Shown here: piece by piece, positions 1,869 to 58,226 of the stretch
Layout of the letters: each line of letters opens with the position of its first letter
How positions within the stretch are numbered: position 1 is the stretch's first letter
Origin: an uncultured Actinomycetes bacterium
GTDB lineage: Bacteria > Actinomycetota > Acidimicrobiia > IMCC26256 > DASPTH01
NCBI GenBank assembly: GCA_963775795.1
Contig: CAVZKC010000004.1
Location: 722,613 to 786,612, forward strand
DNA: 64,000 bases
Reading direction: 5' to 3'
Made by a program: the position numbers and the translations under genes
Notes under the pieces: generated by a model
Database searches by the model: none
Told to the model about the DNA's origin: nothing
Seen by the model: only the letters and a program-made list of their open reading frames with translations

Positions 1869-3374
1869 GTGGGCCGAGCGGTCGTAGGCTTGGCGCCCGT
1901 GGACGGGTCGCCAGGGGAGCTCGAGCGGGCGCGGAGCCTGTTGCTCGGCGACGAGCTGGCGCCGATCGTCGACATGGTGCTGCAGTCGCCCGGCGCCGAC
2001 GAATACGAGGCCGCCACGGTGGAAGGAAGCATTCGGTTCCGCCGTGAGGGCGGCGCCTTCGACGTCGTCGAGATCACGGGGATCGACCCGCTCGCCGACC
2101 AGTCCCCCGCCGCGTTCGCCGGTCTCGCCGCCGAGCGCGCCGACCCGCATCCTGCGCGGGCGGACAATTCGTATCCGTACACGTTCGAGCAGGTCGCGCA
2201 GCTGTTCGACCACCCCGCCGCGCCCGACCTCTGCGTGGTCCACTCCGCCGACCACAACTGGGAGGACCAGGGCGGCCACCGGGGCGAACACGGCTCGCTC
2301 GGCATCGGGCAGGCCCGGGCGCCGTTCGTGGTCGCCGGCCGGGGGGTCCGCGCCGACGGGGTCGTGCCCCGCGCCGCGCGCCTCGTCGATGTCGCGCCGA
2401 CGATCGCCGCGCTGCTCGGCTGCGACGCGCCCGGCACCGACGGACGGGTGCCCGCCGACGGGCAGGCGCGCCGCGAGGCGCTCGACGGCGACCGGCCCCG
2501 ACAGGTGCTGGGATTCCTCTTCGACGGCGTGAACCCCAACGTCCTCTACGACATGGCCGCCGCGGGCGAAGCGCCCCACGTGCGCCGCCTGATGGATCTC
2601 GGCACGACCTACGAGTGGGGAGCGATCGCGTCGCTCCCCACGGTCACGCTCGCCAACCACACGACCATCCTCACGGGTCGGTGTCCCGGCCACCACGGGA
2701 TCCTCCACAACGCGTGGTACGACCGGGCCCGCGCCGAGCAAATCATCACGAACTCCCAGGCGACGTGGCCGTGGTCGATGCGCCACCTGTTCGACGGGGT
2801 CGAGACGCTGCACCACCGCGTGCACGAATCGGAGCCGGACTCGTTCACCGCCTCGGTGAACGAACCCTGCGACCCGGGCGCCGACTACTCGACCTTCGCC
2901 TTCCTCCGGGCCGGCGAGTCGCCCGCGCTCGCCGCGCATCCGGCGGCGCTGCCCCACACCACCGAGCGGTTCGTACGTCCCTCCAAGAGCTACGCGTGGT
3001 CGACGGCGGTCGACCACGCGTGCGTCGAGCAGGCGGTCGGCCTCTGGGAGGGTGAGCTGCGTGGGACGCGGTACCCGCGCCCGCGGTTCATGTGGTGCAA
3101 CTTCACGCTCACCGACGCCGCGTTCCACGAAGGCGGCCCGCATTCCGAGATCGCGGCGGCCTCGGTGCGCGACACCGACGCCCGGCTCGGCGAGATCCTG
3201 GCGGCGGTCGAGCGCACCGGCGCCTTCGACGAGACCGCGTTCGTGCTCGTCGCCGACCACGGGATGCAAGAGACGGACCCGACCGTGCGGGGAGATTGGG
3301 GGGTCGCGCTGCGCGCTGCCGGACTGACGTTTCGCGACGAGGGCTACGGCTTCCTGTACTTGAGTGACACCTGA
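1869..3374 (+). CDS. alkaline-phosphatase-superfamily protein (type I phosphodiesterase / nucleotide pyrophosphatase-like)
   Basis: Track ORF 1518..3374. Its 5' part is antisense to rplM, so the start is probably GTG 1869 or ATG 1974 (uncertain). AP/NPP motifs: [58 protein letters not shown]. Confidence 0.75.
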
Positions 3375-3381
3375 GGAACCG

Positions 3382-4496
3382 TCACACGCTCGTCCCCACC
3401 GCCTTCCCGACGAAGAACGTCACTGTCGCCACCGCCGCGCCGATCAGCGCCATGCGTAGTCCCGCGCGACCCGCGCGGCGACCGGTGAACACCGACGTGA
3501 CCGCGCCGGCGCCGAACAGCGCGAGGATCGAGAGCGTCGCCGCGACCACCGTCGGCGCCGTTCCGCTGCCGAAGAAGAACGGGACGACGGGGATCAGCGC
3601 GCCCAACCCGAACGCGACGAACGACGACACCGCCGCCACCCACGGCGAGCCCAGCTTCGTGGGATCCAGCCCGAGCTCCTCACCGCGAGGGTGTCGAGCG
3701 CGATGTCGTCGTTGGCCATGATCCGATCGACGAGCGCGCGTGCGGCCGTGGGCTCGATGCCCTTCGCCCGGTAGATCAGCTCGAGCTCGGCGCGCTCCTC
3801 CTCGGGGAACGCGCGGAACTCCTCGCGTTCGATGCGCAGCTCGTTCTCGTAGAGCTCGCGCTGCGAGCGCACCGAGATCCACTCCCCCGAGGCCATCGAG
3901 AAAGCGCCGGCGACGAGCCCCGCGATGCCGGCCAGGAGCACGATGCTGTTGTCGGTGGTACCCCCGGCGATGCCCATGACCAGCGAGAAGTTGGAGACGA
4001 GCCCGTCGTTGACCCCGAACACCGTGGCGCGCAGCGCGCCCCCCACGCCCGCCCGGTGCCGCCCCTCGGAGCGGGCGATGCGCCCGCCGGCGGGGATCCC
4101 CTGCATCGCCGCGATCGTGCGACCGGCAGCCTGCTCCTGTGCAGCCATCGCGTCGGTGGCCTCGTCGTCTTCCCGGTAGCGCCCCGCCTCGGCCGCTTCG
4201 GTCCGCAGCATGATCGGAAGCACGGCTTCGGTGCCGAAGCGGCGAGCGAGCGCGCAGAGCACCTTGACGCGAAACGGCGTGCGCGGCCGCACAGTCTCCT
4301 CCCCCGCGGCGCGCAGCAGACCGGCCCAGTGCTCGGCATGGCGCTCCTCGGCTGCCGCGAGCTGGAGGAAGACGCCGCGGCGCGAGTCGTCCGCGTAGCG
4401 CGCGAGACCGCGGTAGAGCTCACCACCGGCGATCTCGTCCGCCCACATCTCGTGGATGTGCGCGAGACGCTTGCGCTCGGTCGGATGCGTCGTCAT
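3382..4496 (-). pseudogene. ferritin/rubrerythrin-like domain fused to a VIT1/CCC1-family iron/manganese transporter, frame-disrupted as assembled
   Basis: Two track ORFs lie in different minus frames. ORF 3594..4496 carries AAEERHAEHWAGLL, then GALRATVFGVNDGLVSNFSLVMG, and ends at DIALDTLA. ORF 3382..3882 carries GEELGLDPTKLGSPWVAAVSSFVAFGLGALIPVVPFFF and the last TM helices. The frames meet at about 3683-3690. Confidence 0.8.
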
Positions 4497-19775: not shown

Positions 19776-20696
19776 TCAGTCCTCGTCCCCGTGGAACTTT
19801 GGAGCCTCGTGGTGCTGCCGCGTGCGGCGCTCGATCTCCTCTTCCTCGGCCAGGAGACGCTCCAGCTCGGGGTCGGCCTCCTTGACGAGCGGGCTCGACT
19901 CCTCGCCCACCTCGTCGGGCGCGGTCTCCACCGGCGCGGCCTCGGCTGCCGGGCGCCGCCGGCCCCCGCCGGCGCTGACGACCCGGCGCGTCGGGCCCTG
20001 GCCCGACGTCTCGCCGACCGCCATGGCGGCCTCCTTCGAGATCTTGTCCTCGGCCGCCGACTTGTAGGGCAGGATCTCGCCCTTGTAGATCCAGACCTTC
20101 ACGCCGATGCGTCCGAACGTCGTGCGCGCCTCTGCCTGGCCGTAGTCGATGTCGGCCCGCAGCGTGTGGAGTGGCACGCGGCCTTCGCGGTACCACTCCT
20201 TGCGTGACATCTCTGCGCCGCCGAGCCGTCCGCTGCACTGGACCCGGATGCCTTGCGCGCCGGCCTTCATCGCCGTCTGCACGGCACGCTTCATCGCCCG
20301 GCGGAACGAGACGCGCCCGGTCAGCTGGTCGGCGACCCCCTGCGCGATCAGGGTGGCGTCGAGCTCGGGCTGCTTGATCTCCTGGATGTTGAAGTGGATC
20401 TTCGGGTTCCCGGTGATCTTGAGCAACCCGGCCCGGAGGCGATCCGCCTCCGCGCCCCGCCGCCCAATCACGATCCCGGGCCGCGCGGTGTAAACGTCGA
20501 CCCGCAACCGGTCACGCGTGCGCTCGATCTCGACGCGGCTCACCGCGGCCCGCTCCAGCTGGCGCTTCAGGTAGTCGCGGATCTTCCAGTCCTCGATCAG
20601 GCTCGTGCGGTACTCGTCGTCCTCGGCGAACCAGCGCGACTTCCAGTCGGTGGTGATCCCGAGCCGGAAACCGTAGGGATTGACCTTCTGGCCCAT
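19776..20696 (-). CDS. rpsC: 30S ribosomal protein uS3 with a long acidic C-terminal extension
   Basis: ATG 20696 lies inside the 651-aa track ORF 19776..21731. [23 protein letters not shown] and [31 protein letters not shown] are present. About 90 extra residues end in [24 protein letters not shown]. Confidence 0.95.
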
Positions 20697-21356
20697 TAGT
20701 GCTCCGATCCTTCGGTCTCGGCGCGCTCGTCGTCCTCGTCCGAATCGGCGGAGGCCTCGGCTTCGTCGATCTCGACCTCGGCCGGCTGCTCCGCTTCGTC
20801 CTCGTCGTGCGCCTCGACGAGGACGTCGGCCTCGTCGAGCACCTGACTCGTGATCGTGATCGTGATCGTGATCGTGATCGTGATCGTGATCGGCCGCCGC
20901 GGCACGACGCGATGCGGCGACTCGACGCCGACGGCTCACGCGTGACGGGCCGCCGGCTGCTGCCTCCCGCCGGCGCCGCCGCTCGAGCTCGTCGTCGCCG
21001 AACCGAGCGACCATGATCGTCACGTGACTGGTGCGCTTGCGGATGCGAGTGCCGCGGCCACGCGCCCGGGGCCGCCACCGCTTCATGGTGGGACCCTCGT
21101 CAGCGAACGCGCGCGACACGTAGAGCTCGTCCTCCGGGATGGAGTCGTTGTGCTCCGCGTTCGCGATCGCCGAGTCGAGCAGCTTCATCACCGCGTCGGC
21201 GGGGCCACGCTCGCAGAACCGGAGGATCTCGCGCGCCTCCACGACGTCCTTGCCGACGATGAGGCCCAGGACCTGGCGCACCTTGGTGGGTGACGTCCGG
21301 AAGTGCCGGAGCCGCGCGGCAGTCTCGCGTTCGGGAGCGACGGTGCGAGTTGCCAT
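20696..21356 (-). CDS. rplV: 50S ribosomal protein uL22, with core and acidic tail in different frames as assembled
   Basis: ATG 21356 forms a TGATG overlap with the rpsS stop. Core sequence: [29 protein letters not shown]...[14 protein letters not shown]. The tail [15 protein letters not shown](IT)7SQVLDEADV...ETEGSEH lies in the +1 frame. It ends at TAA 20698-20696, overlapping the rpsC ATG (TAATG). Confidence 0.8.
20851..20892 (-). repeat. perfect hexanucleotide microsatellite (TGATCG)7, equal to (GATCAC)7 on the coding strand
   Basis: Counted directly: seven tandem TGATCG units with no mismatch, each holding a GATC site. It lies inside the rplV 3' extension. Confidence 0.97.
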
Positions 21357-21634
21357 CAGCGACGACTCGATCGTTCCTGGCCCGCGTGGAACCGGAAGGT
21401 GCGGGTGGGCGCGAACTCGCCGAGCTTGTGGCCGACCATCGCCTCGGAGATGTAGACGGGCACGTGCTTGCGGCCGTCGTGCACCGCCAGGGTGTGCCCG
21501 ACCATGTCGGGGGTGACCGTCGATCGTCGTGACCACGTCTTGATCACCTTGCGCTCGTTGGCCGCGTTCATCGCGTCCACCTTCTTCTGGAGGTGGTCGT
21601 CGACGAACGGGCCCTTCTTCAGGCTGCGCGGCAT
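21356..21634 (-). CDS. rpsS: 30S ribosomal protein uS19
   Basis: Track ORF of 92 aa with [15 protein letters not shown] and [29 protein letters not shown]. Confidence 0.97.
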
Positions 21635-21637
21635 CCG

Positions 21638-22474
21638 TTACCTCCGAGCACCGCGGCCACGGCGGCGGCGAATGATGAGCTCGTCCGACTTCTTGCCCTT
21701 CTTGCGGGTGCGACCTTCGGGCTTGCCCCACGGCGACACCGGGTGGCGCCCGCCCGAGCTCTTGCCCTCGCCCCCGCCGAGCGGGTGATCGACCGGGTTC
21801 ATGGCCACGCCGCGCACATGGGGGCGCTTGCCCTGCCAGCGGGCCCGGCCCGCCTTCCCGACCTTCACGAGGCCCGCCTCGGCGTTCCCGACGGAGCCCA
21901 CCGTGCCCCGGCAGTCGATCGGGACGCGCCGCATCTCGGTCGAGGGGAGCCGCAGGGTTGCGAACTGGCCCTCTTTCGCGACCAGCTGGATCGCGGCGCC
22001 CGCGCCCCGCCCGAGCTTGCCGCCCGCACCCGGCTTCAGCTCGACGTTGTGGAGCACGGTCCCCACGGGGATGTAGCGCAACGGGAGGGCGTTCCCCGGA
22101 CGGATCTCCGAGCCCTGGCCGCTCTGCAACAGGTCGCCCACGTCGACGCCGGTCGGCGCCAGGATGTAGCGCTTCTCGCCGTCGAGGTAATGGAGCAACG
22201 CGATGCGGGCGTTCCGGTTGGGGTCGTACTCGATCGCGGCGACCTTGGCGGGCACGCCGTCCTTGTCGCGGCGGAAGTCGACGAGGCGGTACTTCTGCTT
22301 GTGGCCGCCACCACGGTGGCGCGAGGTCATGCGACCGTAGGAGTTACGACCGCCCGTGCGCGGCTTGGGCTTGGTGAGCGACCGCTCCGGCTTGTCGCGG
22401 GTGATCTCCGAGAAGTCGGAGACGGTCTGGAACCGCCGACCGGGGCTGGTGGGCTTGCGCTTGCGGACCGGCAT
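21638..22474 (-). CDS. rplB: 50S ribosomal protein uL2
   Basis: ATG 22474 lies inside track ORF 21638..22819. [18 protein letters not shown] and [31 protein letters not shown] are present. Confidence 0.97.
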
Positions 22475-55540: not shown

Positions 55541-56737
55541 TCACGTACTCGCGCGGGTGCCGACCGAGAACACGAGCACCCGGTGCGCGCCGAGGCCGGC
55601 CGGGTCGAGGAGAGCCGCGGCCTCGCTGACACGGCTGCGATGCCGGAGCGCCTCCAGGTCGCCGACGTGCGCACGCTCGTCCCAGGCCGCGCGGGCCTCG
55701 TCGACGAGGTCGTCGATGCCGAGGCCGCGCAGCCAGTCCGCTTGCGATGCATTCGACTGGAGGGTCATGCCGGCGGTCGAAGCCGCGTGCACGAGGAACT
55801 CGACCGGCAGGTCGATCGTGATGTCCTGGCCACCAGGGTCGTCGAGCGGCGAGCCGCCCCGGTGGTGGCCCCGGTAGGTGCGGAGCCACCCGCTCACGCC
55901 CCGCTGCAGCAGTTCGGCGGCCGGAGCCGCGTAGTCGAGCACGATCAGCGCGCCGTCGCGCAGGATCTCGCCGCACTCCTGGAACCAGTCGCGCGCGGCC
56001 AGGGGAACTGGGAGGCGCGCGCCGACCGGCACCGCTTCCGCCCCCGCCGCCCCCGCCGCCAGGGCCGCCGCCACCTCGAGCTCGGGGGCGGCGGGCACCG
56101 TGACCTCCGAGAAGCCGCCGTCCTCCGACGCGACCCGCACCTCGGCCCAACCGTCCACCGTGCGCTCGACCACGCGGAACGGCAAGTTGTCGAGCAGCTC
56201 GTTGGCGAGCACGACTCCTGTGCACGCCACCGCCGGCAAGTCCGCGAGCGAGGTCGCGATCGGCCCGACACCGGTGGCGGGCGCCCGTCGCAGCTCGTCC
56301 CCCGGATCGTCGTCGGGATCGTGTGTCACCGGCCCCAGCGCGTCCTCGCCCGGCTCGAGCACGAGGAGCTCCCGCTGGGCTTCGCGGAGCTCGGCCGACC
56401 GTTCGACCAGTACGTAGCGCAGCGCGGGCGCGCACTCGGGACCCGCGGCGAGGAAATCGGCGGCCAGGCGGCCCCGGCCCGCGCCGGCCTCGACCACGAC
56501 GAACGGATCAGGTCGTTCGAGATCGCTCCAGACCCGATCGACCGCGCGGGCAACCAGTGCCCCGAACAGCGGACCGACCTCGGGGCTCGTGACGAAGTCG
56601 CGGCCCGCGCGTCCGGCGCCGTGCCCGCGCTCGAAGAAGCCGCCCGGTCCGTAGAGCGCGGTGTCGACGAAGGCGTCGAACGGGATCGCGCCCTCCCGCC
56701 GGATGCGCTCCACCAACAAGTCGGCGAGCGCGGTCAT
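55541..56737 (-). CDS. SAM-dependent methyltransferase, MidA / NDUFAF7 (DUF185, COG1565) family
   Basis: Track ORF of 398 aa with YGPGGFFERG, RDFVTSPEVGPLFGALVA and the SAM motif I VVVEAGAGRGRLAADFL. It is on the same strand as nuoN, 27 nt after its stop. Confidence 0.8.
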   Translation of the reverse strand: MTALADLLVERIRREGAIPFDAFVDTALYGPGGFFERGHGAGRAGRDFVTSPEVGPLFGALVARAVDRVWSDLERPDPFVVVEAGAGRGRLAADFLAAGPECAPALRYVLVERSAELREAQRELLVLEPGEDALGPVTHDPDDDPGDELRRAPATGVGPIATSLADLPAVACTGVVLANELLDNLPFRVVERTVDGWAEVRVASEDGGFSEVTVPAAPELEVAAALAAGAAGAEAVPVGARLPVPLAARDWFQECGEILRDGALIVLDYAAPAAELLQRGVSGWLRTYRGHHRGGSPLDDPGGQDITIDLPVEFLVHAASTAGMTLQSNASQADWLRGLGIDDLVDEARAAWDERAHVGDLEALRHRSRVSEAAALLDPAGLGAHRVLVFSVGTRAST

Positions 56738-56764
56738 CGTCCCGATCCAAACCGGACGGGTCGG

Positions 56765-58226
56765 CTACGCGGGGAACGCGAGCTCGCCGATGCGGGCGAA
56801 CACCTGCGGATAGACGCCGACCACGACCACCACCGCGGCGGTCAGGCCGAGCGCCACCGTGAGGGCTGCCGGCACGCGCACCGGGCCGGACTCGGCCGCC
56901 GGCTCGTGGAACCACATCTTGCGCGCCACCGCCGCGTAGTAGAAGAACGCGATGACCGAATTCACGGCCGCGACGACCCCGAGCACGACCGCCGGCGCGG
57001 TGTGCGCGTCGAACACCGCGCGGAACATCACGAACTTTGCGAACCAGCCGGCGAAGGGCGGTACTCCCGCGAGCGAGAACATGAAGATCGACATGAGCAC
57101 GGCCAACCCGGGCGCGGTCTGTGCCCAGGCCGGAGTACGAGTCGATCTCCGCCGAGTGGGTCCGGCGCGCCACCGCCATCACCACCGCGAACGCTCCCAG
57201 GTTCATCGCGCCGTAGATGAGGAGGTAGATGAGCACCGCTTCGAAGGCGGACTGCGCTGCCGACCCGTCACCCGCGACCGCGAGGGGAACGAGGATGAAC
57301 CCGCCCTGGGCGATCGAGGAGTAAGCGAGCATGCGCACGATGTTGGTCTGGCGCAACGCGACGAGGTTCCCGTACGTCATCGACGCGGCCGCCAGCACCC
57401 ACAGCATCGGCTCCCACGAGTCCTGCGACGGGAAGAAGCCCACCTTCACGATGGTGAGCAGCGCGACGAAGCCACCCGCCTTGGAGGCCACCGAGAGGAA
57501 GGCCGCCACCGGGGTCGGCGCACCCTCGTAGGTGTCCGGTGTCCAGAAGTGGAAGGGCACCGCGCTGATCTTGAAGGCGAAGCCGCCGATCGTGAGGAAG
57601 ATGGCCACGGCCAGTAGCGGGCTGGTGCCGACGTCGCGGATGTGCACGTTGATGGCGGTGAGGAGCGTCGAGCCCGCCTCTCCGTACACGAACGACATGC
57701 CGTAGAGCATCACCGCGGTGGACAGCACGCCGATCAGGAAGTACTTGATCGCGGCCTCGTTGGATTTCTCGTCGTGTTTGCGCCAACCGGCGAGCACGAA
57801 CGTCGGCAACGTGATCGTCTCCAGCGCCACGAAGATCGAGATCAGGTCGCGGGCCGACGCCATGACCACCAGCCCGAGCACCGAGGTCAGGAGCAGGAAG
57901 TAGAACTCGCCCTGGTAGTAGTCGCCTTCGCCGATGTAGTCGCTCGACATCAGGAGCGCGACGTAGGCGACCACGAGGAAGAAGCCCTGGAAGGCGAGGG
58001 CGTATTCGTCGACGACGAACCCGCCGTGGAACATCACGCGCGTCGACCCGTCGGCCGCGAGCGTGATCACCGGGATCAGGGCCGCGAGGACGCCGACGGA
58101 CGCGAGGCGCGACGACGCGAAACGCGACCGCTCCGGCCAGACGAGGTCGGCCACGAGCACGACCAGCGCCGCGACGGAGAGGATGATCTCCGGCGCGAAC
58201 GCGTGGAAGTCGATCGATGGAGTCAC
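56765..58226 (-). pseudogene. nuoN: NADH-quinone oxidoreductase subunit N, frame-disrupted as assembled
   Basis: GTG 58226 abuts the nuoM stop. Track ORF 56508..58226 is NuoN-like up to AEIDSYSGLG and then turns into Arg-rich nonsense. The missing C-terminal helices, (QTAPGL)AVLMSIFMFSLAGVPPFAGWFAKFVMF...VYPQVF, are in ORF 56765..57106. The junction is at about 57125-57135. Confidence 0.9.

Follow-up and report, generated by a model that had tools for sequence, protein, structure and literature searches.

An apparent uL22-uS3 fusion in an Acidimicrobiia-like S10 operon, most probably an assembly or consensus error beside a length-variable repeat

The uL22 protein of Cutibacterium acnes has a C-terminal extension of 43 aa that is solvent exposed, and the extension of M. 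smegmatis uL22 is of similar length and disordered (PMC10085706). The uL22 protein examined here resembles these actinobacterial proteins in having a lineage-specific C-terminal tail on a conserved fold (PF00237 covers residues 14 to 116 only), but differs in the makeup of that tail, which spans ∼100 aa and comprises a basic segment, a (His-Asp)n repeat, and an acidic tail. At its 3′ end, the rplV stop codon TAA overlaps the rpsC ATG, as in the canonical, translationally coupled TAATG junctions of ribosomal protein operons.

A second relevant comparison is to the residual indels of Nanopore-only metagenomes. The Microflora Danica metagenome-assembled genomes (MAGs), which were assembled with Flye from Nanopore reads only and given a single Medaka polish (PMC12313526), are the nearest species-level relatives of the present DNA among the matches listed. 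The frame breaks described below resemble such residual indels (PMC12313526) in that they are sporadic, private to an assembly, and found in essential genes; the contig names are Flye style, the affected rplV site adjoins a tandem repeat, and a C5-versus-C6 under-call at another site is common to two long-read-style assemblies and corrected in a JGI contig. They differ in that the lesion in rplV is 4 nt (10 nt with an extra repeat unit) and not a single base. Programmed frameshifting of the prfB type, the third described system, is similar only in that the apparent shift is +1; slippery codon, frame-0 stop, Shine-Dalgarno (SD) stimulator, and conservation are all lacking here, and in near-identical strains the shift is absent altogether.

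Reading frames between rplV and rpsC

The window (the whole 64,000-nt stretch analyzed here) contains the gene order rplB-rpsS-rplV-rpsC-rplP-rpmC-rpsQ, with rplV in its S10 operon position between rpsS and rpsC. The locus is an ordinary S10 operon stretch (rpsS-rplV-rpsC-rplP) of an Acidimicrobiia-like actinobacterium. Its features are as follows.

21356 to 21634, minus strand: rpsS (uS19), 92 aa, from the open reading frame (ORF) list, with PF00203 annotated on the genes called at identical loci
20847 to 21356, minus strand: rplV (uL22) in its true frame (frame 0), encoding the core, the basic linker, (DH)7, and Glu170
20850 to 20891, minus strand: (GATCAC)7, an in-frame tandem repeat encoding (Asp-His)7, from TRF and pairwise alignments
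20843 to 20846, minus strand: frame-breaking bases TCAG between GAG and GTG, missing from sister assemblies L081, L082, and L083
20696 to 20842, minus strand: acidic C-terminal tail of uL22, shifted to the +1 frame in the window, from GC3 and sister DNA
20702 to 20705, minus strand: GGAG, an SD-like motif 5 nt upstream of the rpsC ATG, read from the sequence, with a putative function
19776 to 20696, minus strand: rpsC (uS3), 306 aa, a gene of its own with no fusion partner (PF07650 and PF00189)

The rpsS stop codon overlaps the rplV ATG at 21356 as TGATG. An earlier note on this DNA had described two frames downstream of this ATG, and both descriptions were confirmed. Frame 0 encodes the uL22 core, a basic stretch, (DH)7 at 20891-20850, and an Arg-rich string, and it continues without a stop through the in-phase rpsC ATG (20696) up to the rpsC stop at 19776; this run-on belongs to a 651-aa ORF (19776..21731). 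In the +1 frame, a TGA at 20938-20936 is followed by ...(IT)7SQVLDEADV...GSEH through the acidic tail, and the frame ends at the TAA at 20698-20696, which overlaps the rpsC ATG (TAATG). A single uninterrupted rplV frame ending at or before the rpsC start is thus absent from the window as assembled; it is present in L081, L082, and L083, which represent the same or a sister strain.

Codon usage was then compared between the two frames, with the intact neighboring genes giving a GC3 baseline of 0.94. After the repeat (20844-20699), frame 0 had a GC3 of 0.31 and a codon log-odds score of −1.17 per codon, versus 0.90 and +0.61 per codon for the +1 frame. The post-repeat coding signal in the +1 frame is a pattern far beyond chance, and the GC3 values agree with the earlier observation that the frame-0 string is built largely from A/T-ending codons and the +1 frame mostly from G/C-ending ones. 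A natural uL22-uS3 fusion was considered as a candidate and rejected, given a linker GC3 of 0.31 against the baseline of 0.94 and a 526-aa product that is not on record (an exact-product look-up for the 526-aa fusion returned no entry).

Inside the repeat (20850-20891), the frame that reads Ile-Thr (ATC ACG) had a GC3 of 1.00 and a log-odds score of +1.96, compared to 0.46 and −1.24 for the true Asp-His frame (GAT CAC). The earlier note had placed the frame change in 20893-20935 and had taken the real protein to carry (IT)7 followed by the acidic tail. The better codon statistics of the IT frame within the repeat favor that version, but the DNA of 20893-20935 is identical in sister assemblies, where it forms part of an unbroken frame 0, and both the basic-segment motif and the His-Asp repeat are conserved at the protein level in other species. 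These data refute an IT-repeat protein; (DH)n in frame 0 is the genuine and conserved reading, and the +1 stretch that includes (IT)7 is not translated. The break was misplaced because ATC and ACG codons outscore GAT and CAC within the repeat. Codon-usage reasoning within a short tandem repeat may choose the wrong frame, and homology is needed to place a frameshift there.

Such homology was provided by a protein search with a composite of the uL22 core and tail as the query, which returned thousands of uL22 homologues. The closest were Acidimicrobiia-like and typically 220 to 240 aa long, with tails encoded in one frame as a basic segment followed by (H-D/E)n and a long charged tail. Among the 120 best homologue matches, 103 had a run of three or more alternating H-[DE] pairs. 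Alignment with 13 relatives identified invariant tail positions (R139, S141, R142, R144, R145, V146, S149, H159, and H163), all of which fall in frame 0 of the window. Frame 0 is therefore genuine through the DH repeat, and the break lies after the repeat and not in 20893-20935. For domain assignment, a sister uL22 product with a core identical to that of the window was used: PF00237 matched residues 14 to 116 (E = 2e-35; 121.5 bits versus a cutoff of 28), and the Pfam search matched no family in the tail of this product.

Sister assemblies and the hexamer repeat

Exact-protein look-ups with the uS3, uS19, and uL16 proteins of the window located sister loci in three other assemblies.

L082 (JGI 3300081966, 3.85-kb contig): 0 mismatches over 3,850 nt and one 10-nt gap; (DH)6, uL22 of 216 aa
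L081 (ENA ERZ25039533, contig_51745, 594 kb): 9 single nucleotide polymorphisms in 6.9 kb, without the same 10 nt; (DH)6, uL22 of 216 aa
L083 (ENA ERZ25039520, contig_106812, 435 kb): 98% identical; (DH)14, uL22 of 231 aa

The L082 contig differs from the window solely by the 10-nt gap. In all three assemblies, rplV occupies one frame, reading (DH)n-EVLDEADV...[A/D]EVEIDEAEA[S/T]...GSEH and then a TAA stop that overlaps the rpsC ATG. The comparison with rplV 3′ ends of relatives that had been suggested earlier thus yielded a single-frame junction, CAC GAG GTG CTC, in each of the three. The identical 306-aa uS3 is called as a separate gene in L081 and L082. Core and acidic tail accordingly form one protein with a tail of ∼100 aa, as the earlier note had proposed (216 and 231 aa in the sister assemblies), and their placement in one frame in L081, L082, and L083 is what the note had described as its fallback, a plain sequencing artifact.

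TRF analysis placed 7.5 perfect copies of a 6-nt unit at 20848-20892. The (GATCAC)n copy number is 7 in the window, 6 in L081 and L082, and 14 in L083, among strains that are at least 98% identical. Compared to its sisters, the window has 10 extra nt at the 3′ edge of the repeat, equal to one hexamer plus 4 nt, and pairwise alignment shows them as one insertion at 20845-20854. The extra hexamer preserves the frame, and the 4 nt (GAG-TCAG-GTG) alone produce the apparent frameshift. Placement of the TCAG is ambiguous within 20843-20848, where GTCA or AGTC fits equally well. The sister alignments thus put the frame break at the 3′ boundary of the repeat, in 20843-20854, in place of the 20893-20935 interval proposed earlier.

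The source of the inserted bases was also examined. A local template was not found, as GAGTCAGGTG and TCACGAGTCA each occur at this site only, and the window junction could not be derived in a simple way by mixing 6-, 7-, or 8-copy repeat alleles. Metagenome contigs scanned for both junction alleles (GATCACGATCACGA N{0,8} GGTGCTCGACGAGGC) gave 0 matches, a result that is uninformative on allele frequency, and a scan of genome contigs returned, among the matches listed, only relatives at 85% identity or less. The extra-base allele is private to the window assembly and was seen in no other assembly found.

These data bear on whether the insertion could be a genuine strain-specific mutation, with one repeat unit and 4 nt gained by slippage or repair events at the hexamer repeat. 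Under that explanation, uL22 would lack its acidic tail and would be read via the Arg-rich linker into uS3, with uS3 also made from its GGAG-ATG start. The repeat is truly length polymorphic (6, 7, and 14 copies) and hence a mutable site, rpsC has its own SD-like GGAG, and the lesion is unlike a typical single-base homopolymer error. Against it, the displaced acidic-tail DNA matches the in-frame alleles of L081 and L082 at 100% identity, with no sign of decay; the allele is confined to one assembly; other indels of artifact type lie on the same contig (see below); and a product that covalently joins a 50S protein to a 30S protein, made at ribosomal protein expression levels, would be expected to be strongly deleterious. 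We therefore regard a genuine mutation as unlikely. If the insertion is nevertheless real, it may be a natural population variant at a hypermutable hexamer repeat in an essential ribosomal protein gene, in which the acidic tail of uL22 is lost and the fusion to uS3 is tolerated, as translation of uS3 also starts independently; this, too, we consider improbable.

Frame breaks elsewhere in the window and in related contigs

A window-wide GC3 frame-switch scan for internal coding-frame changes was followed by inspection, and two further candidates survived. Most of the other hits were spurious, being either antisense frames or frames left open ahead of true starts.

56508 to 58226, minus strand, break at 57122: nuoN, frameshifted by an extra A (GGGC-A-CAGACC) that L092 lacks
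50380 to ∼49002, minus strand, break at ∼49570: a putative secreted metallopeptidase with a HELTH motif, split by C5 where L095 has C6

The nuoN product of the window is normal up to ...EIDSYSGLG and is then followed by Arg-rich nonsense that enters the next gene, while its true C terminus (QTAPGLAVLMSIFMFSLAGVPPFAGWF...ELAFPA, then a stop) lies in the +1 frame. Repaired nuoN encodes 486 aa, and PF00361 matches this product without interruption across the break. At the metallopeptidase site (∼49570), the JGI contig L095 has C6 and reads through, whereas the window and the ENA contig L094 have C5 and are both broken. This difference looks like a systematic long-read homopolymer under-call. The split metallopeptidase gave only a subthreshold Pfam match, to DUF6782. 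Exact-product look-ups for nuoM and htpX (GTG start) of the window returned no record.

Related contigs carry comparable lesions. The ENA ERZ250395xx contigs have Flye-style names, and each has private single-base indels, including those in rplX of L081 (∼5368), in rplE and rplN of L089, and in nuoM, nuoN, and a methyltransferase gene of L092 (sites 10607, 12262, and 12750). L094 has an artificial ACS-HAD fusion (2310; HAD_PNKP gene), and L096 (ERZ25039550) has several broken genes around a frame-scrambled homologue, P0042. Among the effects of the indels in L081, L092, L089, L094, and L096 are an rplW-rplB fusion and loss of the rpsC call. A database protein of 274 aa (P0103) contains both Ribosomal_S19 and Ribosomal_L22 Pfam domains and is probably a further run-on artifact of the same operon.

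The same rplV-to-rpsC run-on, as a 678-aa ORF, occurs in a MAG of a different species (L002; MFD04944.bin.2.69, 3300-3760). About four frame breaks lie within roughly 250 nt of its acidic-tail region, the first of which is a single extra A at the end of the His-Asp repeat. L002 was rejected as a recurrence of the fusion, as it is the only other run-on and belongs to a multiply frame-broken Nanopore MAG. The GA-rich uL22 tail region seems especially prone to long-read indels.

L002 is also relevant to programmed +1 ribosomal frameshifting, which, in the manner of prfB, would act just after the DH repeat to join the core to the acidic tail. The shift needed is +1; GAG is followed in frame 0 by TCA, a rare codon in this GC-rich genome; and a second MAG (L002) likewise switches frame right after the His-Asp repeat. 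The L002 break, however, is a different lesion with three more breaks after it. The window site (CAC GAG TCA GGT) has no slippery P-site codon, and tRNA-Glu on GAG cannot re-pair on AGU; by sequence reading, it has neither a frame-0 stop nor an SD-like stimulator upstream, and TCA is merely rare. In addition, the junction lies within one continuous frame in near-identical strains and in ∼100 homologues. Programmed frameshifting at this site is therefore rejected, being effectively refuted by the in-frame sister alleles.

Origin of the extra bases and the uL22 tail

The sequence comparisons point to an assembly or consensus error, with extra bases beside a length-variable repeat, as the probable basis of the uL22 frameshift and fusion (probability of roughly 0.88). 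The normal gene would encode a uL22 extension of ∼100 aa (basic segment, Asp-His repeat, and strongly acidic tail) and would end in a TAA that overlaps the rpsC ATG. A spurious net 4 nt (GAG-TCAG-GTG) at the 3′ edge of the repeat, at a copy number of 7, would then have displaced the acidic tail to the +1 frame, and the extra bases may be a product of the long-read consensus or polishing step, at a repeat that varies in length within the population. The predicted products are a normal uL22 of ∼218 aa and a separate uS3. The fusion is apparent because frame 0 of the GA-rich tail, which is Arg rich, happens to be free of stops and in phase with rpsC.

We favor an artifact for the following reasons: (i) the extra bases are missing from independent assemblies (L082, L081, and L083); (ii) the same contig has other frame-breaking indels (nuoN and ∼49570) that are repaired in sister assemblies; (iii) the displaced tail is identical to in-frame alleles and keeps its full codon bias; (iv) each of the sister long-read-style contigs carries private indels that hit essential genes; and (v) homologues across the clade encode the basic segment, (HD)n, and charged tail in one frame. 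On the other side, a 4-nt (or 10-nt) insertion outside a homopolymer is not the commonest type of nanopore error, and the two agreeing JGI contigs could in principle represent a subpopulation other than that of the window. Most probably, the uL22 frameshift is not a real feature.

The main value of this result is in quality control. Annotation pipelines run on this contig would report a bogus uL22-uS3 fusion of 526 to 651 aa or would miss rplV, and the nuoN and metallopeptidase genes are broken on the same contig too. Low-complexity tails of ribosomal proteins are recurrent hot spots for frame breaks in long-read MAGs.

Several observations concern the tails themselves. One clade has an acidic tail after the His-Asp/Glu run (D+E of 20 to 40), and its sister clade has a Lys/Ala-rich, histone H1-like tail after the run (K+R of 20 to 28; PF07382). 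In L001 (∼3570-3645) and in P0078, the uL22 tail continues ∼23 aa beyond the usual ...KPEGSE(K) end and stop (QPSDPEGATTGTPASSERDQEVE); this prolongation might reflect either a genuine insertion or loss of the stop codon. The uS3 protein has a C-terminal extension of ∼90 aa (19776-20060, minus strand) that is conserved in L001 and L002 and is, beside that of uL22, a second ribosomal protein tail of the lineage.

The uL22 tail architecture, in which a basic segment is followed by a variable-number (His-Asp)n repeat and then by an acidic or Lys/Ala-rich tail, is real and apparently uncharacterized, and our guess is that the His-Asp repeat might bind metal. Separate from the frameshift, the conserved, variable-number (His-Asp)n repeat in the uL22 tail of Acidimicrobiia is a mildly interesting piece of the biology of this group.
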